A DNA stretch of 58,733 nt, the filler included, from Candidatus Zhuqueibacterota bacterium (GTDB lineage: Bacteria > BS750m-G25): NCBI GenBank assembly GCA_016783505.1. It is 4 parts of 4 records of this genome, joined end to end, with 100 filler letters (N's around TTAATTAATTAA, not from the genome) between each part and the next. Parts side by side here need not be neighbours in the genome. Positions count along the whole stretch, not along the records: positions 1 to 15,086 come from JADHWK010000051.1; 3 more parts are not named here. One strand, 5' to 3'. Made by a program: the position numbers and the translations under genes. The notes beneath the pieces are model-generated. The model was not told the DNA's origin, ran no database searches, and saw nothing but the letters and a program-made list of their open reading frames with translations. Positions 1-15,086 of the stretch are shown in pieces. Position 1 is the stretch's first letter. Every line of letters starts with the position of its first letter.

Positions 1-2
1 CA

Positions 3-179
3 GGCCTGATGGGAATTGTCTTTTTTGTTGCTTCCATCTGGATGCTGGTGGCCATGGTGATTGCCGTGAGACAGGCCCTTGATTACACCGGGACCCTGCG
101 AGCGGTGGGGGTCTGCGCCATCGGATGGGCCATCCAACTCGTAATCATGCTGATTTTATTCTCGGTTCTAGGCAGATAA
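3..179 (+). CDS. 3' end of a membrane protein, likely YIP1 family (partial at window start)
   Basis: Own translation: GLMGIVFFVASIWMLVAMVIAVRQALDYTGTLRAVGVCAIGWAIQLVIMLILFSVLGR*. Hydrophobic helices; the AVRQALD motif is typical of bacterial Yip1-like proteins. Confidence 0.6.
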   Translation, partial: GLMGIVFFVASIWMLVAMVIAVRQALDYTGTLRAVGVCAIGWAIQLVIMLILFSVLGR

Positions 180-244
180 ACAAGGCCTAGTCCAGATTTC
201 TCACCCATTAGGTTGTGCTCTATTTCACGTAATAGTTCACCCCC

Positions 245-342
245 GTCATTCTGACCACGGCAACCGCGGGAGGAAGAATCTCTTTTTTAATTTACCGGCT
301 GTATCCACTGTGAAAAAGATTCTTCGTTTCACTCAGATTGAC
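245..342. repeat. REP/MITE-like inverted-repeat element
   Basis: GTCATTCTGA..GAAGAATCT (245-281) is inverted against AGATTCTTC..TCAGATTGAC (317-342). Confidence 0.6.
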
Positions 343-742
343 AAAAAAACAATAGTGTGGTGAGCTATTACTATTTCACTAACTCGACGTCTCGAAATTT
401 CTAAGATTTTTTGTTCAACTTTCCTCAATTGCCAAGATTGCCAAAAGTTTCCCGAAACTTCGGGACCAAAATTATCTAAGTTTAGGAACTTTTTGCCCCG
501 ACACTTCGGGGTGAAATTTAGGCAATCTTTCAATTTTTGTCCATTATTCCCTACGGGTTGTAGGCCATTATTCCAGTTGTCCCGAAGGGGCTAAGTTATA
601 TAAATAAGGGCTATCGTTCGATGACTATCGGGATGCGACTACAATTTTTGAAAGGGATGTTGACCGACGCCATTTCCCCGATGTCGTTGACAACCAATGG
701 GAAATCACCGGGGTAAGTATGGAGAAAAAATTGAATTTTTTT

Positions 743-770
743 TTGCTTTTTTAACCTTTTTTGCTATATT
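743..770 (+). promoter_or_regulatory. sigma70-like promoter in the AT-rich leader of the CRISPR-like unit
   Basis: TTGCTT-16 bp-TATATT with an extended -10 TG, about 85 bp upstream of repeat 1. Confidence 0.45.
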
Positions 771-853
771 TAAAAGCAGACTGTTATCCTTAGGATTGGT
801 GATGGGGCTGCTTTTTTTGTTCGTGGTTGTGATCTTTGGGAAAAAGCAACTTA

Positions 854-964
854 GGTTGAAACCAACATCCATTAAAACAAGGATTGAAACACTGCTAATT
901 ATCGCTAATTGCTGATTGTTGACTGCTGTCTAATGCCAACATCCATTAAAACAAGGATTGTAAC
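854..964 (+). CRISPR. orphan mini CRISPR array: 2 repeats (~37 nt) and 1 spacer (37 nt)
   Basis: R1 GGTTGAAACCAACATCCATTAAAACAAGGATTGAAAC (854-890) and R2 GTCTAATGCCAACATCCATTAAAACAAGGATTGTAAC (928-964). The 3' 29 nt match at 28 positions; ATCC/GGAT stem; ATTGAAAC class 1 handle. No cas gene in the window. Confidence 0.75.
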
Positions 965-1010
965 AAAACGCCAATTGTTCGAAAAATATTTGACTATTTA
1001 ACAAAAGGAT

Positions 1011-2726
1011 TTGAAGGTGAAAAAGATTGGGAAAATATTTGTTAGTGTAAGCATTTCGCTTCTGCTATTCACTTGTACTAATTCTGAAAAAAGTAAATTA
1101 ATTCACGAGCCCACAGAAGATGATGGCAATTGGTTCTTTCTTTCAAAAAACGATCTTACTGCCGGAACATATCATACTCGTCATGCTGAGATATTTGGAA
1201 AATATGTTAAAGGATATAACTATTATGTCCTTAAGGGAATTGATAAAGTTCAATCAACTGCAATGGATGGTGGAGGATACTTTATAGGTATAGATTCGAT
1301 ACCCACAGAATCTCCTGTCGGCTATGAACTTAAGCTTTTTGGTAAATCGCTATTAGATCCCCCAAGAAAGACGAGTTACTGCAGTGGTTCCGCATACTCA
1401 GCATTTATAGAGGGGCTTAATCTAATTTTTCCTGATGGCAATAGTCGGCTCTCCTACGAAAGATATGAAGCAATGCGAATGCAGGAATTGGATGGGGGGA
1501 GGCGCGAGGATGGCATTAAGTATTGGGGACATTGGAATGCTGATGGCTTTGGTAGCCAATATGCTCTGGTACAGTATTCGATGATGGGAGAGGAAATAAA
1601 GCCAATTAATGCCCGTCCAGGGGATTTTATTAATATTTCCTGGGAAAAAGGCCTGGGGCATTCGGTAATATTCTTAGGATGGTATCAGGATGAAAATGCT
1701 GATAAGAAAGTGGTATACTGGTCAAGCCAGCGGGGAACTAATGGCTTTGGTGATCAAGTTGTTTCGTTAGATAGGGTCAAGTATGTAAAAATTGTTCGGC
1801 TTGTCCGTCCTGAAAATCTTTTTACGTTTGATATTACAACAGAGGTAAAATGTGATATACCGGGTGATTTGGTTATTACCGCTAAGAATATTCAACACAG
1901 GTATATTGAATACGGAGAGGTTATAGTTGCTAACCTCCCTACCGCACCCTTCCCCCATCCAAAAAGAGAAGATGGACATTATTATGAAGATCAGTTTTTT
2001 CCGCCAGAGAAACATTACAGTGATAATAGCGTGACGATATTTATTCCGAAAAATTTCAGAAAAATGGATAGGGTTGATTTTGTCCTGTATTTCCACGGTT
2101 GGTGGAATAACATAGACTCTGTGCTGAGCAGATTCATGCTTATTGAACAATTGGTTGAGAGTGGGAAAAATGCTATATTTATAGTTCCTCAGGGACCACG
2201 TAATGCCCCCGATTCATTCGGTGGCAAACTTGAAGATGGGGATGGATTCAAACGATTTATGAAGGACATTATGGAATTGCTTCGGAAAAGAGGGAAGATA
2301 AAGAGCAAAAAAATTGGGAATATAATTCTTTCCGGTCATAGCGGGGGCTATCATGTAATATCCTTTATACTGATGAGGGGTGGACTTACTGATCGGATAC
2401 AAGAAGTTTATCTGTTTGATGCACTTTATGGGCAAACAGAAAAATTTGTGTATTGGTTTGATCACTATAACGGCAGACTCATCAATATCTATATTGAAGA
2501 TGGTGGGACGAAAAATGAGACAGAGAATTTAATTGATGATTTAAAAGGATGGGGTATTCCGCATGTAGCAAAAAATGAGAATGAATTAACACAGGATGAT
2601 TTAAAGGAAAATAGGCTGATATTTATTTTTACCGAGCTTGAGCATAATGAGGTGGTCTATAAAACCGGAAATTTTCAAAAATTCCTTAAAGCCAGTATGT
2701 TACTATCCATCGGTAAAAGTCAATAG
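1011..2726 (+). CDS. putative lipoprotein: Cys/His (papain/NlpC-P60-like) domain fused to an alpha/beta hydrolase domain
   Basis: Signal peptide ending LLLFTC; TSYCSG...GHSVIFLGW in the N-half; YFHGW, GHSGG nucleophile elbow and LFDALY in the C-half. Confidence 0.6.
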   Translation: MKVKKIGKIFVSVSISLLLFTCTNSEKSKLIHEPTEDDGNWFFLSKNDLTAGTYHTRHAEIFGKYVKGYNYYVLKGIDKVQSTAMDGGGYFIGIDSIPTESPVGYELKLFGKSLLDPPRKTSYCSGSAYSAFIEGLNLIFPDGNSRLSYERYEAMRMQELDGGRREDGIKYWGHWNADGFGSQYALVQYSMMGEEIKPINARPGDFINISWEKGLGHSVIFLGWYQDENADKKVVYWSSQRGTNGFGDQVVSLDRVKYVKIVRLVRPENLFTFDITTEVKCDIPGDLVITAKNIQHRYIEYGEVIVANLPTAPFPHPKREDGHYYEDQFFPPEKHYSDNSVTIFIPKNFRKMDRVDFVLYFHGWWNNIDSVLSRFMLIEQLVESGKNAIFIVPQGPRNAPDSFGGKLEDGDGFKRFMKDIMELLRKRGKIKSKKIGNIILSGHSGGYHVISFILMRGGLTDRIQEVYLFDALYGQTEKFVYWFDHYNGRLINIYIEDGGTKNETENLIDDLKGWGIPHVAKNENELTQDDLKENRLIFIFTELEHNEVVYKTGNFQKFLKASMLLSIGKSQ

Positions 2727-2760
2727 TTGATCACCAATGAGTTGAAACAAAATAAATAAC

Positions 2761-2968
2761 GCCGAACCCCAGTGATTATCCACCTATTTTGTAACCGCAC
2801 TCCCAATGCCTGGGTGCGGAGCTATCGCAGGCGTAAAGCCTGCGGCTAAAATGCATAAAAAACCTCCCGGGGCTGGAGACCTTCGGGGGGTTATTTTTTT
2901 TAAAACGTATTGCTTTTGATCTAAAAATTATGTAAATTTATTTGTAAATCAGTATTCAAAAAGGAGGT
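2761..2968 (+). repeat. intergenic module copy 1: attC-like left half, REP, terminator, promoter, RBS
   Basis: GCCGAACCCCAGTGATTATCC; GCAGGCGTAAAGCCTGCGGCTA; hairpin CCTCCCGGGG..CCTTCGGGGGG plus T-run; TTGCTT-17-TAAATT (2910-2938); AAGGAGG. The terminator-promoter part recurs at ~7250-7365 and ~11390-11497. Confidence 0.85.
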
Positions 2969-2973
2969 CTAGC

Positions 2974-3104
2974 TGTAGCCGCATCCCGTCGGCCCCAAGG
3001 GTCTTGAACCCGTAGGGTCTTGGGAAACGAGCTTGGGAAAGGCTCGGGGTGCGGAACTATCGCAGGCGTATCAGTGGGGCGCCTGACCGAAAGCCTGCGG
3101 CTAC
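2974..3104. repeat. GTAG-type REP cluster with nested palindromes
   Basis: GTAGCCGCA...TGCGGCTAC ends; internal ATCAGTGGGGCGCCTGACCGA element also found at ~29600 and ~49731. Confidence 0.6.
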
Positions 3105-3177
3105 AATTTCTATTGTAATGCACGTGAATGTGATTTTGACTAAACCCAACCATCAACAAAAGAAAGTGAAGTTTGAA

Positions 3178-3882
3178 ATGTATAAGAAAATTGGCATACT
3201 TGGTGGATTGAGTCCGGAATCTACAATTGAATACTACCGATATATTACCAGAAAATATTACGAGCTTTTTGGAGATTACAACTATCCCGAAATCATCATT
3301 TACGGGGTCAATTTCCAACAGTTCATAAACTGGCAAAGAGAAGGAAATTGGAATAATATCGTGGAAAGGCTGGTACAAGCTACACAAGCCATCCATGCTG
3401 CCGGCGCTGACTTCGGATTAATTGCCACAAACACTATGCATATTATATTTGACAAGGTGCAAGAGAAATCACCAATACCCCTTATAAGTATTATCGAAGC
3501 CACCGCTACTGCAATTAATAAAGAGAAAATCGAAACCGTTGGACTTTTAGGAACCCTTCACACTATGAGAGAGCAATTCTATAAAGAAGGATTATTTAGA
3601 CACGGTATCAAAACGATAGTTCCAGAGCCACAAGAGCAAGAATTTATCAACAAAGTAATTTATGATGAATTGACAAGAGGACGAATAAATCAGAGGTCAA
3701 AGCAAGCCTACATAGAGATTATTAATAAACTCAAGGCTAAAGGAGCAGAAGGCATAGTTCTAGGTTGCACCGAAATACCCCTTTTAGTACAACAGATTGA
3801 CTGCAACATAAAACTATTTAATACAACACAGATACATGCACAAAATGCACTTAACCTTGCTACAAATACCGAGGTCAGATAA
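3178..3882 (+). CDS. aspartate/glutamate racemase family protein (YgeA-like)
   Basis: KKIGILGGLSPEST, IATNTMH and LGCTEIPLL motifs. Start moved to ATG 3178 because the longer ORF begins in repeat DNA. Confidence 0.9.
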   Translation: MYKKIGILGGLSPESTIEYYRYITRKYYELFGDYNYPEIIIYGVNFQQFINWQREGNWNNIVERLVQATQAIHAAGADFGLIATNTMHIIFDKVQEKSPIPLISIIEATATAINKEKIETVGLLGTLHTMREQFYKEGLFRHGIKTIVPEPQEQEFINKVIYDELTRGRINQRSKQAYIEIINKLKAKGAEGIVLGCTEIPLLVQQIDCNIKLFNTTQIHAQNALNLATNTEVR

Positions 3883-3883
3883 A

Positions 3884-3963
3884 CGGACAGACCTGAAGGT
3901 CTGTCCCTACACTTTTTATGAAATAGGCGTATACATTGTAGGGCGAGGTTTATGTCGTCCGTA
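3884..3963. repeat. inverted pair of GTAG-type REP elements
   Basis: GGACAGACCTGAAGGTCTGTCCCTAC followed by GTAGGGCGAGGTTTATGTCGTCCG. Confidence 0.55.
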
Positions 3964-4010
3964 GGAAGAGAAAAAATGGCCAATTTATCCAGATTTTTAG
4001 GGGGTGTATC

Positions 4011-6890
4011 ATGACAAAACTTTTGGGTAAGACTCTAAAAATTGCCCCTCTCGTTGTAGCGATTGCTGTGATCGCATCCGTATTTACAGCATTGTCTTCA
4101 AAAGCTTCAACACCAGGGAAACGTACTAGCTATTCCTATGATGAACCCTTCTTTCCTGATGGAACTTACGATCCAGCGATTCCTCTACCTGACAGTGTCC
4201 TCGGTTATGCAATAGGTTCAAAGCCATCTCGCTACGATGAGCTGGTGCATTACCTCAAACGACTTGCTAAAGCCAGTACCCGGGTGCAACTCAAAAAATA
4301 CGGGGAGACATATGAGGGCCGTGCTCTTTATTATCTCATCATAAGTTCTGATGAGAACATAGCAAGGCTTGCTGATATAAAGGGTTCCATAGCTAAGCTT
4401 GCTGACCCACGCAAGTTACGCGGTGGTAATAAGGAAGTCTACTCACTTATTGAGCGTACCCCTGCCATTGCCTGGCTTGCCTACAGTATCCATGGGGATG
4501 AGCTCTCCAGCACGGACGCTGCCATACAGTTAGCATATCAGATCGCTGCTGGTACCGATTCGCTCACCAAAAAGCTCCGGCAAGAGCTGGTGATTATTAT
4601 TGACCCTTTACAGAATCCAGATGGTAGGGAGCGCTTCCTGGCCCAGCTACAACAGTTAGAAGGTACATTCCCAAACCCTGATCCCCAAAGCTTACAACAT
4701 AGTGGGTTCTGGCCGTGGGGACGGGGCAACCACTACCTGTTCGATCTTAACCGTGACTGGTTCCTACTGGTGCATCCAGCGACTCGGGGTAAGGTCGAGG
4801 CAATCCTTGAATGGAACCCACAATTATTTGTTGATTCACACGAGATGGGTTCCCTCAATACATATCTATTCTCGCCACCAAGAGAACCATTTCATCCCAA
4901 CATGAGCGAGACACTCAAGAAGTGGTGGCAGATATTCTCCCGAGATCAGGCCCATGCCTTTGACCAATACGGATGGAGCTATTATACCCGCGAATGGAAT
5001 GAATCCTGGTATCCAGGATATGGTACTTCTTGGAGCATTTATACGGGAGCCATCGGAATTCTTTACGAGCAGGCTGGTGTTGAAGGTTCGATCGTGAAAC
5101 AGAGGGATGGTTCAATACTCACTTATCGAGAGTCGGTGCACCACCAATTTGTAAGTTCCATCGCTAACCTGAAAACAGCCGCCAATCGTCGTAGTCAATT
5201 ACTGAGGGATTTCTATCTGGAAAAGAACAAGGCAGTGGGCGGTAAATCAGCTACTCCCATCTATGCATATATCTTTGTGCCGGGCAAGAATAAAGTTAGA
5301 ATCAATAAGTTCATTGAGACACTACTTCTACAGGGTATTGAAGTTCAAGTCGCCGGGGACAAATTTGTAGCCAATAACCTGCACGATTACTGGGGTCAAA
5401 GCTTCAGAAGAAAAGAATTACCAGCGGGAACCTACATCGTTTCAGTTGCTCAGCCTAAGCAATCGCTAATCCAAGTCATACTTGAGTTTGATCCCAGGAT
5501 GACCGACTCCTTCTTAGTTGAAGAACGTGGCGAACTAGAGAAGAAAAAGAAAACTCGCCTATATGAGGTTACCGCCTGGTCTGTACCTATAGCCTATAAC
5601 CTCGACGCCTATTGGACAGATAAGCCCATAAAGATAAAGACAAGACTTATCAATCAAATTGAAGTTCCCCAAGGCAAAGTAATCAACCCAAGTCCTAAGT
5701 ATGGATACGTATTTGACTATTCCAGCGACGCTGCTGTCCATGCACTCATCAGGTTCTTGGAAAACGACTACAAAGTTAGAGTTGCCAAAAAAGCGTTTAA
5801 GATTGAAGGGGTGGCATTCTCCAGGGGAAGCATTTTACTAAGGGGACACGAGAATAATGTAAGTTTACATGATTTTGTTAAAAAAGTGACCGCTGAAACT
5901 GGCATCATCATCTATGGTGTCAATACGGCGCTGAGTGATGAAGGTCCTGATCTTGGTGGCGAGGAGTTTGGTCTGCTGGAACCACCGCGTATAGGTGTGT
6001 TTGCAGGGGCACCAATAGCTTCCACCGATTATGGAGCAATATGGCATATGTTAGATAGGGGGTATCGGATTCGTTTTTCATCACTTAACATAAACACGAT
6101 ACAACGTTTAGATTTAGACAAATATAATGTGCTGGTGCTTCCTTCAGTATGGGGAGGATCCCAAGTATATAAAAATATTCTGGGTGAGAAGGGCATAGAT
6201 GAACTGAGAAGATGGATTAAAGATGGTGGAACCCTCATTGCTGTGGGGAGTGCAGCCGCATTTGCAGCTGATACATCAGTTGCTCTGAGCAGCGTAAGGC
6301 TTCGGAGGCAGGTACTTGACAAAATTGATGAATACGCAGAGGCGGTTAAGCGTGAGCAATCGGCTGTTAAGCCTTCCGTGGATGCTAAAGCAGTATGGGA
6401 GCCCCCCTTAAAAGAAGAGGAGGCGGAAGGTAAGGAAGTAACAGGGAAGAAGAAACGTGAACTGGAAGATCTTACCGAGGAAGATGAGATGCTTCGACCC
6501 TTTATGCCGCGTGGCGTCATACTTCGAGCAGATTTGGACAGAGAGCATTGGCTAACGAGTGGAATGGATGATTCTGAAATGGACCTCTTTGGAAGAGTTC
6601 CTGTCATACTATATACTTCCTATGCATTCATGTCAAAAGCACCGGTGCAAACGCCAGCACGCCTGGCGGGCGCCAAAAATCTTAGACTTAGTGGGCTGCT
6701 TTGGCCTGAGGCTCGTGGGCGGTGGGCCAAAACTGCTTATCTGACCCGCGAGGGCATAGGAAAGGGACAGGTCATTCTCTTTGCTGATAGGCCCAACTTT
6801 AGGGGCTACTTCCACGGTTCTGAGCGTCTTCTCCTAAATGCTCTATTACTGGGACCCGGATTAGGTGCCAGGCATCCTACGCCATGGTAA
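4011..6890 (+). CDS. secreted M14 zinc carboxypeptidase family protein
   Basis: Signal peptide; SIHGDE, NPDGRER, DLNRDW and DSHEMG motifs; C-terminal class I glutamine amidotransferase-like region. Confidence 0.9.
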   Translation: MTKLLGKTLKIAPLVVAIAVIASVFTALSSKASTPGKRTSYSYDEPFFPDGTYDPAIPLPDSVLGYAIGSKPSRYDELVHYLKRLAKASTRVQLKKYGETYEGRALYYLIISSDENIARLADIKGSIAKLADPRKLRGGNKEVYSLIERTPAIAWLAYSIHGDELSSTDAAIQLAYQIAAGTDSLTKKLRQELVIIIDPLQNPDGRERFLAQLQQLEGTFPNPDPQSLQHSGFWPWGRGNHYLFDLNRDWFLLVHPATRGKVEAILEWNPQLFVDSHEMGSLNTYLFSPPREPFHPNMSETLKKWWQIFSRDQAHAFDQYGWSYYTREWNESWYPGYGTSWSIYTGAIGILYEQAGVEGSIVKQRDGSILTYRESVHHQFVSSIANLKTAANRRSQLLRDFYLEKNKAVGGKSATPIYAYIFVPGKNKVRINKFIETLLLQGIEVQVAGDKFVANNLHDYWGQSFRRKELPAGTYIVSVAQPKQSLIQVILEFDPRMTDSFLVEERGELEKKKKTRLYEVTAWSVPIAYNLDAYWTDKPIKIKTRLINQIEVPQGKVINPSPKYGYVFDYSSDAAVHALIRFLENDYKVRVAKKAFKIEGVAFSRGSILLRGHENNVSLHDFVKKVTAETGIIIYGVNTALSDEGPDLGGEEFGLLEPPRIGVFAGAPIASTDYGAIWHMLDRGYRIRFSSLNINTIQRLDLDKYNVLVLPSVWGGSQVYKNILGEKGIDELRRWIKDGGTLIAVGSAAAFAADTSVALSSVRLRRQVLDKIDEYAEAVKREQSAVKPSVDAKAVWEPPLKEEEAEGKEVTGKKKRELEDLTEEDEMLRPFMPRGVILRADLDREHWLTSGMDDSEMDLFGRVPVILYTSYAFMSKAPVQTPARLAGAKNLRLSGLLWPEARGRWAKTAYLTREGIGKGQVILFADRPNFRGYFHGSERLLLNALLLGPGLGARHPTPW

Positions 6891-6969
6891 ATGATTTAAG
6901 GGTAAAAAGGTCTGAGCTTGAAATCAATAAAAACAAGGAATGAAACAATCTATTACTCACATCTTTAAC

Positions 6970-7365
6970 TTCCCTAAATCCCCCCCAGCCCCCCTTTTTT
7001 AAAGGGGGGATTTCAAAGGGGGACTTGAGTGGGGGGATAATAGTTAGTCATCAAGGGGGGGGGAAGAAGATGTCTCGAATGAAGTTTCCTCTCCTTTGGT
7101 GGAAGAAGATGAGTATGAGCAGAGTATTTTAGGGTGAAATAAGAATAAAGAAAACCTAATCCCAGCGATTATCATTTAATATGAAATCGTTTTCTTTATA
7201 GATGTTTGATGTAAAACAATCCGTAGGCGTAAAGCCTGCGGCTACAATGCATAAAAAACCTCCCGGCCTGAAAACCTTCGGGAGTTTATTTTTTTAAAAA
7301 AACGGATTGCTTTTAATCTTAAAATTGCGTAAATTTATTCATAAATCAGTATTCAAAAAGGAGGA
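6970..7365 (+). repeat. intergenic module copy 2, including a ~120-bp mini-cassette and terminator-promoter-RBS
   Basis: C/G-run palindrome; GGATAATA-GTTAGTC (7043); ACCTAATCCCAGCGATTATC (7154-7173); REP; terminator; TTGCTT-17-TAAATT (7307-7335); AAGGAGG. Confidence 0.85.
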
Positions 7366-7382
7366 TAACAGACCGATATGGT

Positions 7383-8597
7383 GTGGGAGGGGAGAGATAT
7401 GTCTATATGGAGGCCGGTCACGTGGGACAGATAATAGGGGGAAATATAGAAAGATTTCTTAAAGAAAAGACTTCCCGCCGAACATTTTTAAGAAGTGGTT
7501 GTTTATTTTTAACCTATTTGGGAATTTATCCTGGTTTATTTGACTTATTGACCAAAAAGGTATGGGCACAAGATGGTACACCCCCTTTACGAGAGGCAAT
7601 GTTTTATAAAAGGCTTGCCAATAATGTAGTTCAGTGCGGGGTCTGCTTCCGTGGCTGTAAATTGAAAGAGGGGTGGAGAAGTTTCTGCCGCAATAAAGAG
7701 AACATTGGCGGCCGATTCTATAATCTGGTCTACGGGAGGCCCTCAGCAGTACATGTTGACCCTATTGAAAAAGAGCCATCCCTCCATATGCTTCCCGGAA
7801 CAGAGATCCTTTGCTTTGGGACTGCGGGCTGCAATTTTCGCTGTAAATTCTGTCATAATTGGCACCTCTCCCAGAGATCAATTGAGGAGATGGAATATAC
7901 CTATGATCTTTTGCCAGAGGATGCGGTGAAAATAGCCCTAGAGAAGGGTATTCCCACCCTCTCTTTTACCTATAATGAGCCAACCAGTTTTTATGAATAT
8001 GTTTACGATATTGCCAGGATTGCCAAAGAGAGAGGCTTAAGGATTCTCTGGCACTCTAACGGCGGAATGAGGCCCGAACCCTTAAAAGAACTCCTCAAAT
8101 ATACCGATGCGGTAACTATTGATCTAAAGGGCTTTACTGAAGAATTCTACCAGAACATCTCCTCTGCAAAACTTGAACCGGTACTGAGGACATTGAGGAT
8201 TATCAGAGAGGAAGGCAGGTGGCTTGAGATCGTAAATTTACACATCCCCACCCTAAATGATAATCCTCAGGATGTGAAAAAGATGTGCCTTTGGATTAAA
8301 GAGAATCTGGGAGAATATACCCCCCTACATTTTTCCCGCTTTTTCCCCGCCTACAAGCTCACCAACCTTTCGCCAACGCCGATAGAAAAACTGGAAGAAG
8401 CCTATAAGATTGCCAAAGGGGTGGGCTTAGAATATGTAACCATTGGTAATGTCCCCGGCCATAAATATAACTCCACCTTCTGCCCCAATTGCGGGGAGAG
8501 GCTAATTCACCGTATCCATTTTACGGTTTTGAGTAATAACCTAACCGAGGGGAACTGTAAGTTTTGCGGCCACAAAATCCCCGGGATCTGGAAATAG
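7383..8597 (+). CDS. AmmeMemoRadiSam system radical SAM enzyme with a Tat-like N-terminus
   Basis: VDPIEKEP; CNFRCKFC CxxxCxxC; TYNEP; PLHFSRFFP; C-terminal CPNCG and CKFCG; SRRTFL twin-arginine motif. True start uncertain. Confidence 0.88.
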   Translation: MGGERYVYMEAGHVGQIIGGNIERFLKEKTSRRTFLRSGCLFLTYLGIYPGLFDLLTKKVWAQDGTPPLREAMFYKRLANNVVQCGVCFRGCKLKEGWRSFCRNKENIGGRFYNLVYGRPSAVHVDPIEKEPSLHMLPGTEILCFGTAGCNFRCKFCHNWHLSQRSIEEMEYTYDLLPEDAVKIALEKGIPTLSFTYNEPTSFYEYVYDIARIAKERGLRILWHSNGGMRPEPLKELLKYTDAVTIDLKGFTEEFYQNISSAKLEPVLRTLRIIREEGRWLEIVNLHIPTLNDNPQDVKKMCLWIKENLGEYTPLHFSRFFPAYKLTNLSPTPIEKLEEAYKIAKGVGLEYVTIGNVPGHKYNSTFCPNCGERLIHRIHFTVLSNNLTEGNCKFCGHKIPGIWK

Positions 8598-8642
8598 ATG
8601 AGAAGAGGTGCATTACGCGTTTGCTAGTCCTGTCTGAGTATT

Positions 8643-8737
8643 CCCCCTCCCCTAACCCCTCTCACTAGGGGAGGGGAAAAAGAGCCAGAGCATGTTTTGG
8701 TTCCTCCCCCTTGATGGGGGAGGTTAGGTGGGGGTGA
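8643..8737. repeat. C/G-rich palindromic intergenic repeat
   Basis: CCCCTCCCCTAACCCCTCTCACTAGGGGAGGGG and CCTCCCCCTTGATGGGGGAGG hairpins; related C/G-run hairpins at ~6975, ~11155 and ~13900. Confidence 0.6.
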
Positions 8738-8797
8738 AAGCCTCGCCAAGAGTAGCTGCAATGACAATTAACAAATAGGTAATGCTCCCGATGAGAG

Positions 8798-11104
8798 ATG
8801 AGAATGAGAAGACGCCTTATCTTTGCCATACTGGTAATGGGTTTTAGTGGTATTGTTGTCCAGATCCTACTTCTGAGAGAGTTTTTAGTAGTCTTCTCCG
8901 GCAATGAACTGGCGATCGGGATTATTCTGGCCAATTGGCTTATCCTGGAGGCCTTTGGCTCCCTCTATGTGGGGAAAAGGGTCGAGCACATCAAAGAGAG
9001 GATTGAGGCATTCGTTGGTCTTCAACTCTTTTTTTCCCTATGTTTACCCCTGGCGGTTTATTCAACCCGGATATTAAAGGATTTTATAGGAGTTATCCCA
9101 GGGGAAGGCCTGGGGCTGATTCCCATTCTATATTCATCTTTCCTCATTTTTGCTCCCCTGAGTATCGCCCATGGGGCATTATTTACCTTCTGCTGTAAGC
9201 TATATTCCCTCCACTTCGTCTCAGAAGGTAAGGCCATTGGTAAGGTCTATGTTCATGAGACGCTGGGCACCATTTTCGGAGCGTTTGCTTTTACCTATTT
9301 GTTTGTCCCTTACCTTCATTCCATCCAGATAGCCCTGGGGGTAGCGCTTTTGAACAGCCTCTTGTGCCTCCTTCTTCTGGGATCTTCTCTCCGTAAATCT
9401 TTAGCAGGCAGGGCTCTGGCAGGTGGGTCGGCAGTATTCTTAGTCCTGTGTGCCTATTTAATCATTGGTCCAAAGGCAGATGAGATTCATCATCTCTCCA
9501 TAAGCCAGCAGTGGAGGGGACAGGAGGTAGTCCACTATCAGAATTCTATCTACGGAAATATCACCGTCACCCAAAGGGATGAACAATACTCCTTTTTCTC
9601 TGGTGGGATTCCCATCATTACCACCCCGGTTCCAGATATAACCTTTGTGGAGGAGTTTGTCCATCTACCTTTGCTTTTTCATCCTGAGCCCAAAAAGGTG
9701 CTTGTTATTGGTGGTGGGGTAGGGGGGGTGATCCATGAGCTCTTAAAACACCCCATAGAAAGGGTTGACTATACTGAACTCGATCCCTTAATATTAAAGG
9801 TTGTTCAGGAGTTTCCTACCCCCTTGACTGAAGCTGAGCTCGCCGATCCTCGAGTAAATATCGAATATCTGGATGGCCGATTCTTTATCAAGAAAACTCC
9901 TCACAAGTACGACCTGGTTCTGGTCGGCATTTCTAACCCCTCAACCTTACAGATAAACAGGCTCTTTTCTAAAGAATTCTTCTCTTTGGTTAAGGAAAGG
10001 CTTGAGAAAGGGGGTATACTGGTTATGGTTTTAGCTGGTTCCCTAACCTACTTAAGCGAGGAATTGGGGGATCTCAACGCCTGTATCCTTAATACCCTTA
10101 AGGGGGTTTATCCTTATGTTCGGGTTATCCCCGGGGACTTCAACCTGTTTTTGGCCTCGATTTCAAGTGAGGTCTCTTTAATTAACCATACCTTACTCAG
10201 TCAGAGGCTAAATGAACGTGAACTTGAGGTAAGCCTTTTGACCCCATCCCATATCAAGTATAAATTAGATTCCAGACGGGTAGATTGGTTCTTTACCTCG
10301 CTAAAAGGTGCTACCGAGAAGATCAATCAGGATTTCTCCCCACTGGGGATGTTCTATAGTCTTGCATATTGGAATTCTCTCTTTTCTCCCCGTATGAAGT
10401 GGCTGTTTAGATGGTTTGAACAGGTAAATTTAAGGCTATTGATTATCCCTCTTTCTATATTTACCCTCATCTTTTTGATCATCTATTTTAAGGGCCGAAC
10501 AATATTTACAAAGCTAAGTATCCCTTTTGCCATTATGGCTTCCGGTTTTGCCGGGATGATATTTGACTTAGCACTAATCTATACCTTTCAGGCACTTTAC
10601 GGATATGTCTTTCACCAGATAGGACTTTTAGTGGCCGCCTTTATGGTGGGGATAGCAGTGGGTAGTTTGGCTATGACCTCTCTTTTGAAAAGGGTTAAGA
10701 GGGATTTTGCTTCATTTATCGGGTTAGAACTGGCCATGATTCTCTTTTCCGGGGCCCTTCCGGCGATATTTCTTCTCTTTTCCCCTTACTTAGACCGTCC
10801 GGCGGTATTTTCTCTTTTCCGGGTAATCTTTCTTGTGCTCTCCTTTTTTTCCGGTCTTCTCATTGGTACCCAGTTTCCCTTAGCCAATAAGATATATCTA
10901 AAGCGCTCTCCCGATCTGAGTGGTACTGCCGGTCTACTTTACGGAGCCGATCTTGCCGGCGGATGGATAGGTGGTCTGCTTGGGGGGGTGGTGCTTTTAC
11001 CGGTTTTGGGACTGGTTCAAACCTGCATAGCAGTAGTCCTTCTTAAAATGACCAGTCTCCTCATACTTCTTGTCTCAGCTCTCCTGAATAAGGAATTGGG
11101 ATAA
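8798..11104 (+). CDS. membrane-bound spermidine synthase-like protein (multi-TM fused to aminopropyltransferase domain)
   Basis: TM helices flank PKKVLVIGGGVGG, ELDP and DGRFF motifs. Confidence 0.88.
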   Translation: MRMRRRLIFAILVMGFSGIVVQILLLREFLVVFSGNELAIGIILANWLILEAFGSLYVGKRVEHIKERIEAFVGLQLFFSLCLPLAVYSTRILKDFIGVIPGEGLGLIPILYSSFLIFAPLSIAHGALFTFCCKLYSLHFVSEGKAIGKVYVHETLGTIFGAFAFTYLFVPYLHSIQIALGVALLNSLLCLLLLGSSLRKSLAGRALAGGSAVFLVLCAYLIIGPKADEIHHLSISQQWRGQEVVHYQNSIYGNITVTQRDEQYSFFSGGIPIITTPVPDITFVEEFVHLPLLFHPEPKKVLVIGGGVGGVIHELLKHPIERVDYTELDPLILKVVQEFPTPLTEAELADPRVNIEYLDGRFFIKKTPHKYDLVLVGISNPSTLQINRLFSKEFFSLVKERLEKGGILVMVLAGSLTYLSEELGDLNACILNTLKGVYPYVRVIPGDFNLFLASISSEVSLINHTLLSQRLNERELEVSLLTPSHIKYKLDSRRVDWFFTSLKGATEKINQDFSPLGMFYSLAYWNSLFSPRMKWLFRWFEQVNLRLLIIPLSIFTLIFLIIYFKGRTIFTKLSIPFAIMASGFAGMIFDLALIYTFQALYGYVFHQIGLLVAAFMVGIAVGSLAMTSLLKRVKRDFASFIGLELAMILFSGALPAIFLLFSPYLDRPAVFSLFRVIFLVLSFFSGLLIGTQFPLANKIYLKRSPDLSGTAGLLYGADLAGGWIGGLLGGVVLLPVLGLVQTCIAVVLLKMTSLLILLVSALLNKELG

Positions 11105-11152
11105 GCCGGTGAGATTTTTATAGAGAGTCCCCCTTATATAATTTCATTTGTA

Positions 11153-11497
11153 ACCCCCCCCTAAATCTACCCAAGCCCCCCTTTTTTAAAGGGGGGAGTT
11201 AAGGGGGGATAATAGTTAGCCATCAAGTTGGGAAAAGAAGATGTCTCGAATGAGGTTTGCTTTCCTCTGGTGGTAGAAGATGAGGGTGAGGAAAGTATTT
11301 TCAGGTGAAATAAAAACAAAGAGCACCTAACCCCAGCGATTATCTGTTAATATGTAGCCGTACCCCGAAGGCTCGGGGTGCGGTATAATGTATAAAAAAC
11401 CTCCCGGGGCTGGAGACCTTCGGGGGGTTATTTTTTTAAAAACGGATTGCTTTTAATCTTAAAATTACGTAAATTCATCCGTAAATCAGAGGGAGGA
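11153..11497 (+). repeat. intergenic module copy 3, including mini-cassette and terminator-promoter-RBS
   Basis: GGATAATA-GTTAGCC (11215); ACCTAACCCCAGCGATTATC (11325); terminator; TTGCTT-17-TAAATT (11447-11475); GGAGG before ATG 11501. Confidence 0.85.
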
Positions 11498-11500
11498 ACG

Positions 11501-12256
11501 ATGAAAATAATCTCAATCTATTTCGGACTACTGTTTTTGCTGACGGGAACCATCCTGGCTCAGGAGCTCACCGGACCGGAGATAATAGATAAGGTCAGGG
11601 AACTCATGAATCAGGAGAATGTAAAGGGAATGATGACTCAGACCATCGAGACCACCTCGGGCCAGTTGCGTACCTTCGAGTATGAATACTTCGCCGCCAA
11701 CAAGGGGGAAAAGACACTGATGCGTTACACCAAGCCCAGAAGGGTTAAAGGCCTGGCCTTTCTTATAACCAACTACGCCGATGACATCTGGATTTATTTC
11801 CCACGAACCGGTAGGGTTTTGAAAAAGGCTTCACATTTCAAGAAACAAAAAGTTCAGGGAAGTGATTTCACCTATGAGGACATGGGCTCCGGGGAGGCCT
11901 GGATTGAAGAATATGAGTCCCGGAGACTAATGGATGAAAAAGCCGAGGGCTTTGATTGCTTCAAGGTAGAAATGGTGGCCATGCCGGAAGAAAATCCCAC
12001 CTATTCAAAAATGGTGATATGGGTGCGTAAGAGCGATTTCTCCACGGTGAGGATAGCTTACTATAACGATAAAGGGGTTCATGAGAAAACCCTTTATCTG
12101 CGGGATATTCAGGACGTGGATGGGATTCCTACGGCCATGACCATGGTAATGGAGAACCATCTGAACAACACCCGGACAGAGATGAAGACCATCTCTGTCA
12201 CCTATAATACTACCTACCCCAAGAACTTTTTTAGTGAAAGGGAGCTGAAGAGATGA
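11501..12256 (+). CDS. outer membrane lipoprotein-sorting (LolA-like) protein
   Basis: Signal peptide; WIYFPRTGRV and GSDFTYEDM motifs; RBS GGAGG. Confidence 0.85.
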   Translation: MKIISIYFGLLFLLTGTILAQELTGPEIIDKVRELMNQENVKGMMTQTIETTSGQLRTFEYEYFAANKGEKTLMRYTKPRRVKGLAFLITNYADDIWIYFPRTGRVLKKASHFKKQKVQGSDFTYEDMGSGEAWIEEYESRRLMDEKAEGFDCFKVEMVAMPEENPTYSKMVIWVRKSDFSTVRIAYYNDKGVHEKTLYLRDIQDVDGIPTAMTMVMENHLNNTRTEMKTISVTYNTTYPKNFFSERELKR

Positions 12257-12697
12257 TGGAATGACGGATAATTGGATAGATGGATAAATGGATAGATGGA
12301 TAATTGAGTGAATAGGTCCCAGATTTGTACTCAGTAAATGATCCAGCACCGTCAGTCAGGTGCTCAACTAATGGGAAAAACCGACCCGCCTTAGGCGGGT
12401 GAATCGGTTAGTTCCATTGTTGGGGTGTTCGTTGATACCGAATGGAGTCGGGACTATTATGCCAAATCAGTAAAAATAACCCCCAGTTTCAAAGGGAGGT
12501 CAAACAAAATCCAAAATATTATCTTTAACCGTTTTAACGGTTTATTATTAGGGTGTTGTATCACTTCGGTAAGGTGCCCGACTGATTTTTGACCTTTTTT
12601 CAATGAAGCCATAAATTAATGAATAAATGGATGTTGAGTGGACGGGTCTCAGGTTTATAATTAAAATTGATTGGGAATAAAAGCGGAAGGACAAGCG

Positions 12698-13846
12698 ATG
12701 AAAAGAAAAAACCTATTCAAATTTGTCTTATGTCTTATTTTCTTGTTTCCATATTCCTTAACCGCTCAGCCAGAACTTTTTGGCTATTTTGAGAGCGAGA
12801 TGGATGGGATAAAGGTCTCGGGGCAAAATTATAGCTTTGGCTACAACAAGGTTCGGCTGGACCTTAAGGCATATCCCAGTGAGAATCTTACTGCCGGTGC
12901 TAACCTGAATTACCACATTTACCATGGCAAAACGGTCTGGAATCTTTTTGATTTCCTGCCGGAAAGGGTCTGGCCTGACTCCATTAATGAATATCCCTTC
13001 CCCATCAGGGATACCTTGTATCTGGACAACGCCTTTATGAAAATGCGCTTCCGGGCTTTCGACCTGACCATTGGGAAGCAACAAATATCCCTGGGAACGG
13101 GATACGCCTGGAACCCGGTTGACATCTTTAATATGAAGGAGCTTCTGGACCCGACCTACGAGCAGACCGGAGTAACGGCCTTGCGGTTGGAGGTCCCCTT
13201 GAGCGTCCGTGGTGGGCTGGACCTCATCGTTTCCCACGGAGAGGATTGGGAGTCCTCGACGAAAATGATCCGCACAAAGTGGGGTTTGGGAACCTTCGAC
13301 TTCACCGCCCTCTACGGGGAATTACGCTGGGAGTTAGTAGGATTTGATAGTTTAGTGCTGAATCGGCGGATGATTAGCGGCTCCTTGGTGGGGGAGGTGG
13401 CGGGGATCGGTGTGTGGTTTGAAGGGGGTCATAATTTCCTCAATGATGATGAGGACTTTGATGAGTTTTTAGTCGGCCTGGACCATACCTTTGACTTTCA
13501 GACCTATTTTCTCTGTGAATACTACCACAATGGTTTTGGCCCAAGTAAAAAGGAAAGTCTCACCATTGATAATTATCTCTACCTTCTTGGGGGAAGTACC
13601 CACAGCCTGATGCAGGATTACCTTTTTAGTTACGTGAATCAACCCGTCACCGACCTGATGGATTTTGGTATCTTTGGCATTTGTAATCTGAACGACGGGA
13701 GTTTTGTTTTGAACCCCCAGATAACCTACAATATCTTTGAGAATACCGATCTCAGCCTGGTGCTCAGTTATTTTCACGGGGAGGATGATTCAGAATTTGG
13801 CCTGCAGGATTTTGGGGGACGGATCAGAATCAGGGCATATTTTTAA
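12698..13846 (+). CDS. putative outer-membrane beta-barrel protein
   Basis: Signal peptide; TIGKQQISLGTGYAWNPVD; terminal aromatic residue (RAYF); context of LolA-like and MMPL genes. Confidence 0.7.
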   Translation: MKRKNLFKFVLCLIFLFPYSLTAQPELFGYFESEMDGIKVSGQNYSFGYNKVRLDLKAYPSENLTAGANLNYHIYHGKTVWNLFDFLPERVWPDSINEYPFPIRDTLYLDNAFMKMRFRAFDLTIGKQQISLGTGYAWNPVDIFNMKELLDPTYEQTGVTALRLEVPLSVRGGLDLIVSHGEDWESSTKMIRTKWGLGTFDFTALYGELRWELVGFDSLVLNRRMISGSLVGEVAGIGVWFEGGHNFLNDDEDFDEFLVGLDHTFDFQTYFLCEYYHNGFGPSKKESLTIDNYLYLLGGSTHSLMQDYLFSYVNQPVTDLMDFGIFGICNLNDGSFVLNPQITYNIFENTDLSLVLSYFHGEDDSEFGLQDFGGRIRIRAYF

Positions 13847-14063
13847 GGGTACAGTTCACCAGTAAATTTAATTTCTGAATCTTTTGGCCTTTCTCAAAAC
13901 CCCCCTTTACTCCCCCCTTTAATAAAGGGGGGCTAGGGGGGGGTTAGGGTAAAACGACATAGAGTTAAATTTTTGGTCAGGCGCCCGACTGAAAAGATTA
14001 TTATATTCGTTTTTCTTTATGCCTTGTTGAGTCGGTGACATAATTGTTATTTAAAAGGAAATA

Positions 14064-14578
14064 ATGGGACAGACCATCTTGATTCTAGGGGGTTACGGTA
14101 ACACGGGACGGCTCCTTGCCAGGCTTCTTCTACTGGAAACCGACGTTAATTTGTATATTGCCGGAAGGAATAGGGAGAAAGCTCTGACCACCGCAGAACA
14201 GTTAAACAAAGAGTATCACACCAACCGAGTTCGGGGGATCTACGCAGATGCATCCAAGGTGAATACTCTAAAGAAAGCTTTTGAAAAGGTGGATTTCGTT
14301 CTTATTACATAGTGATGAAACTGGAAGCTGATGGGAAAAAAGATGGTAAACAGAAAGAAATGACGGTTCAACTTTACCATGAAGATGGTTATTGGTTCAC
14401 GGCAATACCGGTAGTGGCATGTTTGCTGCAGTATCTGGACGGCTCCATCCGCAAGCCAGGGCTCTGGCGTATGGGACAAATATGCGATCCGCAGAGATTG
14501 TTCCGTGATATGGAAAGACTTGGAATCAGGATTAAGATAAAAATTGAAGGGACGACCAATCACACCTTTCTCCAGTAA
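14064..14578 (+). pseudogene. saccharopine dehydrogenase-like oxidoreductase remnant (internal deletion, two fragments)
   Basis: ILILGGYGNTG..AGRN Rossmann fragment stops at 14312; a C-terminal fragment (DGYWFTAIPV..PGL) follows in another frame. Confidence 0.7.
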
Positions 14579-14929
14579 AATTTAGCCTCACCCCGAGCCT
14601 TCGGGGTTCGAATTCACCCGCAGGCATGACAGTCGGGCGTCAGTTAGGCACCTGACTAACCTGGCCGATGACCGAAATTCAAAATCCAAAATACAATAGA
14701 AACAACCGGAGTTACCCGTTCATCCAGTCCTTACGGAATGGACGGATTTATTATAAACCCCGAATTTTCGGGGTAACTCCGTATTATGTAAAAGTGAATA
14801 ACGTCTTGAACATTTGAATTTTATATTTGTTTCGTCCCGAGTACTCGGGATCAATATTCGGATTTTGGATTTATTTTTGACTATAATAAAAATTCGAAAT
14901 GTGGTGAAATATATTAACGGAGGAATAAA

Positions 14930-15086
14930 ATGCGGGAGAATTTTCTAAAAGCCATAGCCAGATGGTCGGTTGAAAAAACCGGGTGGGTGATGACAGTGAT
15001 TTTAATCTTGACCGTATTCTTTGGCGTACTGGCCAGCCGGATACAGTTCACCACCAAATGGTCAGATATGCTTCCAAGAGGGGACA
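14930..15086 (+). CDS. N-terminus of an MMPL/RND family transporter (cut by contig end)
   Basis: RBS GGAGG; TM helix followed by DMLPRGD. Confidence 0.6.

Follow-up and report, generated by a model that had tools for sequence, protein, structure and literature searches.

The repeat-spacer-repeat unit at positions 854-964 of the window, by which we mean the whole 58,733-nucleotide stretch of DNA analysed here, is most likely a relic directed against the host itself rather than an RNA dedicated to regulation. It probably represents a decayed orphan CRISPR array, the last spacer of which was acquired from the arms of the host's own cassettes. An earlier note on this DNA had presented the unit as a candidate regulatory crRNA and had kept a decayed array as its fallback; the regulatory reading turned out to be weakly supported, and the fallback is judged the better one. 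The window joins four contigs, of which only C67 (window 1-15086) is contiguous with the unit, located 853 nt from the left end of this contig. The features are:

743-770, plus strand: possible sigma-70 promoter with a weak -35 (743-748), 16-nt spacing and an extended -10 TGCTATATT (762-770), read from the sequence
776-818, plus strand: leader hairpin followed by seven T, a possible attenuator, not significant in the fold of 776-853
854-890, plus strand: R1, CRISPR-DR7 repeat with an intact ATTGAAAC end (RF01320, 46.2 bits)
891-927, plus strand: spacer of 37 nt, host heptamer TRAYTGY, forward arm only, from genome matching
928-964, plus strand: R2, degenerate terminal DR7 repeat ending ATTGTAAC (RF01320, 34.7 bits)
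1011-2726, plus strand: downstream ORF of 571 aa, with GTG 1017 as its likely start, behind AAGGA (1005-1009), read from the sequence
6910-6946, plus strand: third, lone degenerate DR7-like repeat just after the M14 peptidase gene (PWM 28.1 bits; RF01320 19.3 bits, E 0.5)

The anatomy drawn in the earlier note stands. R1 and R2 measure 37 nt each and enclose a 37-nt spacer, resulting in a period of 74; they have their 3' 29 nt in common, with one mismatch, and are unlike over the first 8 nt, R1 carrying the intact 8-nt handle and R2 being degenerate and mutated at its 3' end. The class 1 (I-B/III-type) repeat family proposed at that time was also confirmed, as R1 belongs to the Rfam family CRISPR-DR7 (RF01320; 46.2 bits, E 4.6e-8, gathering threshold 37). 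R2 scores just under this threshold (34.7 bits, E 5.6e-5), which is in line with a degenerate terminal copy, and with such E-values the two matches are not due to chance. The spacer has the length typical of class 1 array units of this family, since 37 nt is the modal length among 157 ordinary DR7 spacers (43/157), practically all of which (156/157) measure 34-41 nt. The unit resembles the DR7 arrays of I-B/III-B systems with a TTA PAM in its repeat, the 37-nt length, the hairpin, the ATTGAAAC end and the 74-nt period (PMC8482600), and it differs from them in that the present assembly contains neither a cas operon nor an array, but five scattered and partly degenerate repeat copies. Folds of the leader hairpin and of the crRNA were no better than those of shuffled sequences.

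What the earlier note had missed is that the spacer is host DNA, a piece of the genome's own dispersed heptamer repeat. It consists of TRAYTGY from its first to its last base and contains neither a cassette lead nor an inverted arm. The 2.5-Mb assembly holds 57 TRAYTGY tracts of at least two units, i.e. 56 in addition to the spacer itself, and seven other genome sites match at least 26 of the 37 spacer positions, all of them falling in heptamer tracts (by eye), as against 0-1 sites for each of 25 shuffled spacers. Over nt 13-37, the spacer is an exact match to C1:129755-129779 (25 nt), and the same contig provides the best overall site in the assembly (29/37); the spacer therefore matches the host chromosome as self-targeting spacers do, with no full-length protospacer found in the assembly. 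In phages, plasmids and IMG/VR, no protospacer of any kind was found. The 25-nt match is supplied by a small dispersed element family (C1:129730, C66:17251, C83:10897 and C84:58507) composed of a 9-mer arm, a fixed ~25-nt linker and a heptamer arm. The linker of these elements was also considered as a decayed DR7 repeat, and the resemblance was not significant (91-674 of 1000 shuffles).

The same heptamer arms, in forward and inverted orientation, an intact four-helix-bundle gene on contig C50 (PF05635, TIGR02436), where it stands before the ATG and, inverted, after the ORF. It is also found as the arms of internally deleted or empty cassette copies on C3, C33 and C59, and of ~150-nt palindromic elements. 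Heptamers preceding the ATG of such a gene are present in the ORF-bearing Coxiella 23S IVS (PMC4990558), and the source sequence of the spacer (C50; empty on C59, C3 and C33) accordingly resembles the Coxiella IVS and the TIGR02436 cassettes. Differently from these, and from the intact C50 and deleted C59 armed cassettes, the unit in the window has a single arm, no ORF and a position between CRISPR repeats.

The modal length of 37 nt, the end-to-end heptamer composition and a start phase fitting a TTA PAM together suggest that the spacer is a true acquisition from host DNA. The repeats ending like R1 are listed in 16 rows of supplement file 2 of PMC8482600, 13 of type I-B, one of I-A and two of III-B, and the associated PAMs are TTA in 12, TTG in one and TTn in three rows. 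Within the heptamer tracts, TTA precedes phase 3 only (23 of 147 units), the phase at which the spacer starts, although TTN in general is commoner before phase 7 (143/147) than before phase 3 (60/147). Moreover, the spacer begins and ends with the same six bases, the second occurrence standing behind TTG (31-nt period), so that a periodic donor would have had TTG upstream. We consider the phase and PAM argument modest.

Close strains differ in the presence of this spacer. The comparison used four metagenome runs (X5, X6, X7 and X9), placed at 80% likeness. In X9 (~98.5% identical, from another study) one bridging contig (record 28) spans 792-965 and keeps the spacer with two differences, and X5 covers the last 11 nt of the spacer, unchanged. 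In X7 (~97% identical) 74 nt are skipped (861 to 936) in a single contig (record 21), from which the spacer is absent and in which the -10 is kept; the short side of the skip measures 119 nt. The exact core shared at the X7 junction is 25 nt long and thus shorter than the 31-base word that the assemblies of these runs presumably use, making an assembly collapse unlikely for this one contig. Contigs 13 and 16 of X6 end and begin at the shared core, which fits the spacer-less form; no joint between the two was observed, and X6 is not counted. The same metagenomes hold near-identical repeats with other spacers, which may or may not be this organism's, and 40 further compared "relatives" have in common only repeat- or promoter-like bits.

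The AT-rich leader with an extended -10, by which the unit was claimed to have its own promoter, is there. AT content is 66% across the 150 nt upstream of R1, and TGCTATATT lies ~85 nt upstream of R1; however, a sigma-70 scan did not include this element among its calls (2 sites, 3.1 expected), and the motif is found in 302 of 6,936 AT-rich 150-nt genome windows (4.4%). The 776-853 region folds with -16.3 kcal/mol (z -0.19), and a terminator scan of the unit region retrieved none, the leader hairpin included. As there is neither a terminator nor a second -10 between R2 and the downstream gene, the unit most simply lies in the 5' leader of this gene. The 743-770 promoter probably also, or only, serves the latter, and the extended -10, although present, is indistinguishable from the downstream gene's promoter. 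The encoded 571-aa protein has a lipoprotein-like N-terminus and 409 homologues, nearly all unnamed. Its description as a hydrolase agrees with a GHSGG motif read by eye in the C-terminal half, but finds no match in Pfam, NCBIfam or PDB; similarly, the proposed YIP1-like neighbour corresponds to an upstream fragment matching Yip1 only at E 0.7. The neighbours on C67 are host genes, encoding an Asp/Glu racemase, an M14 peptidase and an AmmeMemoRadiSAM enzyme. Several short, REP-like palindromes, together with a repeated element of ~45 nt (window 440-640, 2810-3110 and 7230-7250), flank the racemase gene, and the same elements recur upstream of the unit and near 7240.

That C67 carries no cas gene, as had been stated, was confirmed. 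The cas locus and main array that the earlier note proposed to locate were not found in the assembly, which is 59.9% complete. In this assembly, Cas1, RAMP, Cas6 and TnpB-type families (PF01867, PF03787, PF10040 and PF07282) gave no match, no Cas7 or Cas5 homologue was found and a generic repeat-pair scan detected no CRISPR array. Nine proteins from DR7-linked cas loci, two of them labelled by position only, retrieved nothing from it in tblastn at E 0.01, and the four-helix-bundle controls matched.

These results bear on the idea that the unit encodes a CreA/CreR-type crRNA through which a distant Cascade would repress a cas or cargo promoter situated in the unassembled genome, which we regard as improbable. 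The unit shares with creA (PMC8501985) and published mini-arrays (bioRxiv 2023.03.03.530964) two divergent repeats, a single spacer, an intact 8-nt R1 handle, a degenerate R2 and a promoter-like element upstream; in addition, the spacer is kept in X9, and 40% of the genome is missing. However, CreA requires a PAM together with pairing at nt 1-5 and 7-11 (PMC8501985), and the seed targets of the published mini-arrays are PAM-flanked and lie in cas or cargo promoters (bioRxiv 2023.03.03.530964), whereas the assembled 2.5 Mb contain no site combining a TTN PAM with seed 1-5/7-11 (shuffle mean 0.64). As regards the partial PAM-flanked matches in promoters, especially those of cas genes, for which the earlier note had proposed to search, these 2.5 Mb thus hold no such seed match in a cas or toxin promoter. 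Without a PAM, the 11-nt seed occurs at only two sites, below most shuffles. Furthermore, the unit is neither in nor beside a CRISPR-cas locus on C67, the contig extending only 853 nt to its left, or elsewhere in the assembly, its genome match is at the 3' end of the spacer and not in the seed, no terminator or promoter separates it from the downstream gene, and the spacer is lost in X7. Repetitive host DNA would also be a poor guide for a single promoter.

A related proposal, that the unit is a guide retained against the heptamer arms, appears very improbable. In a type III complex, the 3' part of such a guide would pair with the inverted arm of transcripts carrying the cassette, which would be cut without Cas10 activation; in Cascade, it would bind arms flanked by a PAM and so damp the cassettes. 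The best-target match is perfect at spacer nt 13-37 and poor at nt 1-12, and in TtCmr 3'-perfect, 5'-poor pairing would permit RNA cleavage without cOA (PMC8376896). DR7-type repeats do occur with III-B systems (the two rows in 16 mentioned above), the repeat on C59 also has an arm behind it, and two of the five TTN sites with a 10-nt seed are heptamer arms with TTG or TTA (C1:129774 and C13:9316). Five such sites are, however, not above chance (16% of 200 shuffles equal that number), the assembly contains no RAMP, Cas6, Cas7 or Cas5 homologue, and X7 does without the spacer. The 157 ordinary DR7 spacers include none that is as tandem-repetitive as this one (maximum 10 versus 11). Nor was the same mini-array seen by eye among matches to the repeat end followed by the TRAYTGY heptamer, either in genome contigs (0/5) or in metagenome contigs (0/16); viral contigs gave no match to this pattern, and five of the 16 metagenome matches are spacers in long arrays, the rest looking like chance. 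The best 5' seed match in the genome extends over 12 nt and has no TT PAM (C51:3816). It falls in a 9-mer arm that we take to be part of a decayed GxxExxY-type cassette.

The suggestion that the unit might be an RNA anti-CRISPR (Racr) on a mobile element is largely refuted and, in our opinion, hardly credible. Known from viral genomes, Racrs consist of solitary repeat units (PMC10651486), and the repeat-like anatomy is the only feature that the unit has in common with them. Its neighbours are host genes with no phage context, and carriage by a phage, prophage or plasmid was not observed; the repeat core and spacer have no copy in IMG/VR, and phage and plasmid collections gave chance-level matches only.

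The unit is not the only DR7 remnant of this genome. A PWM built from nine arrays of other genomes, with the reversed-genome maximum of 17.8 bits as threshold, identifies five DR7-like copies, namely R1, R2, window 6910-6946, C59:5565 and C66:11225, all of them sense to the next gene. Rfam ranks four of the five, two weakly, and the C59 copy was not reported in a separate scan. A G/C-rich hairpin element lies behind the 6910-6946 repeat. At C66:11225-11261 and in two other genomes (G084 and G111), a lone DR7-like repeat immediately precedes a start codon or lies within a short 5' leader downstream of a promoter; the mRNA could thereby become a Cas6 substrate, or these repeats may be neutral relics. 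The C59 copy (C59:5565-5601) lies immediately next to a cassette with an internal deletion, which shows homology to both ends of the C50 gene; the interior score of this comparison (72.3) was reached by none of 300 shuffles. The C59:5565-5760 region comprises a promoter-like AT-rich stretch, the repeat and the deleted cassette, ahead of a gene that looks like a cation/H+ antiporter by eye.

The C59 junction raises an alternative that we consider unlikely, in which the spacer is not a Cas1 acquisition but a trimmed cassette pseudo-spacer or an intergenic mosaic: a heptamer-armed cassette would have docked behind a repeat, the module of repeat and arm would have undergone duplication or recombination, and only 37 nt of one arm would have survived. 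It draws on the deleted cassette on C59 and on the heptamer doublet that follows two of the five DR7 copies, as compared with a genome-wide background of 4.1e-4, although the intergenic background for such doublets would be perhaps tenfold higher. A 13-nt motif, AACTT..AGGTTGAA, is present at only two genome sites, the start of R1 and just before the 25-nt match on C1, an observation made post hoc, and a weak arm-like 11-mer follows R2 (19 of 1000 shuffles). Armed cassettes are also docked behind a repeat in genomes G006, G160, G314 and G404, and the G160 array described below even carries cassette remnants, as well as an intact cassette, between its repeats. On the other hand, remnants elsewhere measure at least 124 nt and retain both arms and the lead, whereas the spacer of the unit is one arm of canonical length, and, as noted above, the likeness of the C1-type linker to DR7 is not significant.

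In a sample of 401 genomes from across the domain, 20, the present one included, contain the DR7 core, and loci were inspected in 18 of the other 19 (G137 was left out, G027 was covered in part). In four of these 18 the repeat abuts a tandem-repeat arm or a cassette; junctions of this kind are present in two other phyla, in one case amplified as oversized array units. The latter case is the type I-B locus of G160 (C5:59000-62150), where 21 normal spacers are followed by five cassette remnants of 124-138 nt or with gaps, each between repeats; the old end of this array has one 38-nt spacer among the remnants and a 432-nt intact four-helix-bundle cassette between repeats. In G006, the order is cas1, a four-helix gene, cas2, cas4, leader, one repeat and an octamer-armed four-helix gene, and G404 has a leader, one repeat and an intact cassette. 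G160, G314 and G404 belong to one genus and are thus counted as one event. Four-helix genes crowd these cas loci generally (4 of 16 matches in G160, 2 of 7 in G006 and 3 of 6 in G314), so the site behind the repeat may be just another junction. A cas4 gene, a leader and a single repeat without spacer occur together in G006, G404 and G041, and an intact armed four-helix-bundle gene adjoins in the first two. A ~1.5-kb insert with phage-like ORFs (Mu-type morphogenesis look, by eye) separates two perfect DR7 repeats at G042:C39:393-1933.

Orphan units of the present shape are not rare, as lone or paired DR7 copies precede host genes in G084, G111, G251 and G294, where the inspected flanks contain no cas-like ORF by eye. 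At G294:C5:18001-18111, an orphan repeat-37 nt-repeat unit with divergent repeats stands ahead of an MgtE-like gene (by eye). G377 contains dispersed degenerate DR7-like copies alternating, as intergenic mosaics, with REP-like palindromes and heptamer runs, and no array. Wider pattern searches added no case of the repeat-cassette junction and thus do not indicate that it is widespread. The repeat end followed by the four-helix motif was retrieved from four of 300 genomes, a sample largely overlapping the 401, with two true matches (G006 and G160) and two by chance; in one large phylum it gave two matches in 251 genomes versus three control matches, both being coding chance, and in viral contigs two matches, both chance.

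According to the preferred reading, that of a decayed array with a self-spacer, a type I-B/III (DR7) array would have decayed to a single repeat-spacer-repeat unit within a host gene's 5' leader. Its last spacer would have been taken by Cas1-Cas2-Cas4 from the organism's own DNA, i.e. from a heptamer arm bracketing four-helix-bundle/IVS-like cassettes or their empty derivatives, possibly with use of the TTA PAM. Self-targeting is toxic and is relieved by mutation of cas genes, repeat, target or PAM (PMC3630108); a self-spacer against a dispersed repeat would be a liability for a DNA-cutting system, so that, in response to autoimmunity, the cas genes or targeting would likely have been lost or inactivated. 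Subsequently, the array would have collapsed by repeat-repeat recombination, a process that may be still under way, as X7 has one repeat and no spacer, and would have left a unit presumably devoid of present function. The five scattered DR7 copies in a genome with no detected array are consistent with this course. Against it stand the absence of a full-length protospacer (best 29/37), the retention of the spacer in the ~98.5%-identical X9 from another study, and the combination of an intact R1 3' handle with a mutated R2 3' end, which is the creA pattern (PMC8501985). Note also that the spacer-less form is known from one contig placed at 80% likeness, and that cas genes and targets may lie in the unassembled part of a 59.9%-complete genome.

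Orphan self-targeting arrays and mini-arrays are already known kinds. The self-spacer of the Pectobacterium I-F array (PMC3630108) resembles the present case in its real repeats, a chromosomal spacer of canonical length and no evident interference. The unit differs in that its target is not a gene or an island, but the dispersed heptamer arming IVS-like cassettes, and in that it is down to one spacer and resides in a gene leader. What is new here is that a spacer of normal length, plausibly in phase with a PAM, derives from the cassette arm itself. The literature searched, which mostly excluded subscription papers, yielded no report of four-helix cassettes or their arms as CRISPR spacers, and passages of PMC5524665 and PMC4679880 hold nothing bearing on cassettes within arrays.

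Read as a relic, the unit suggests that a CRISPR system drew a spacer from the repeat arms of a widespread family of cassettes, in keeping with a view of these arms as mobile DNA. The case also implies that one-spacer units looking like creA can be plain decay products, so that a regulatory role should not be assigned from anatomy alone. Were the guide active, CRISPR effectors would be tied to the control of four-helix-bundle/IVS cassettes, and a direct assay for this family would become available. There is, finally, a slim chance that DR7 systems and cassettes stand in a host-parasite relationship, in which cassettes would dock on repeat 3' ends and could be amplified as array units, and the locus described here would be a retained, PAM-correct guide against the arms, cutting or silencing the transcripts that bear them, its 3' pairing avoiding autoimmunity; if true, this would amount to RNA-guided control of an IVS-like cassette family.
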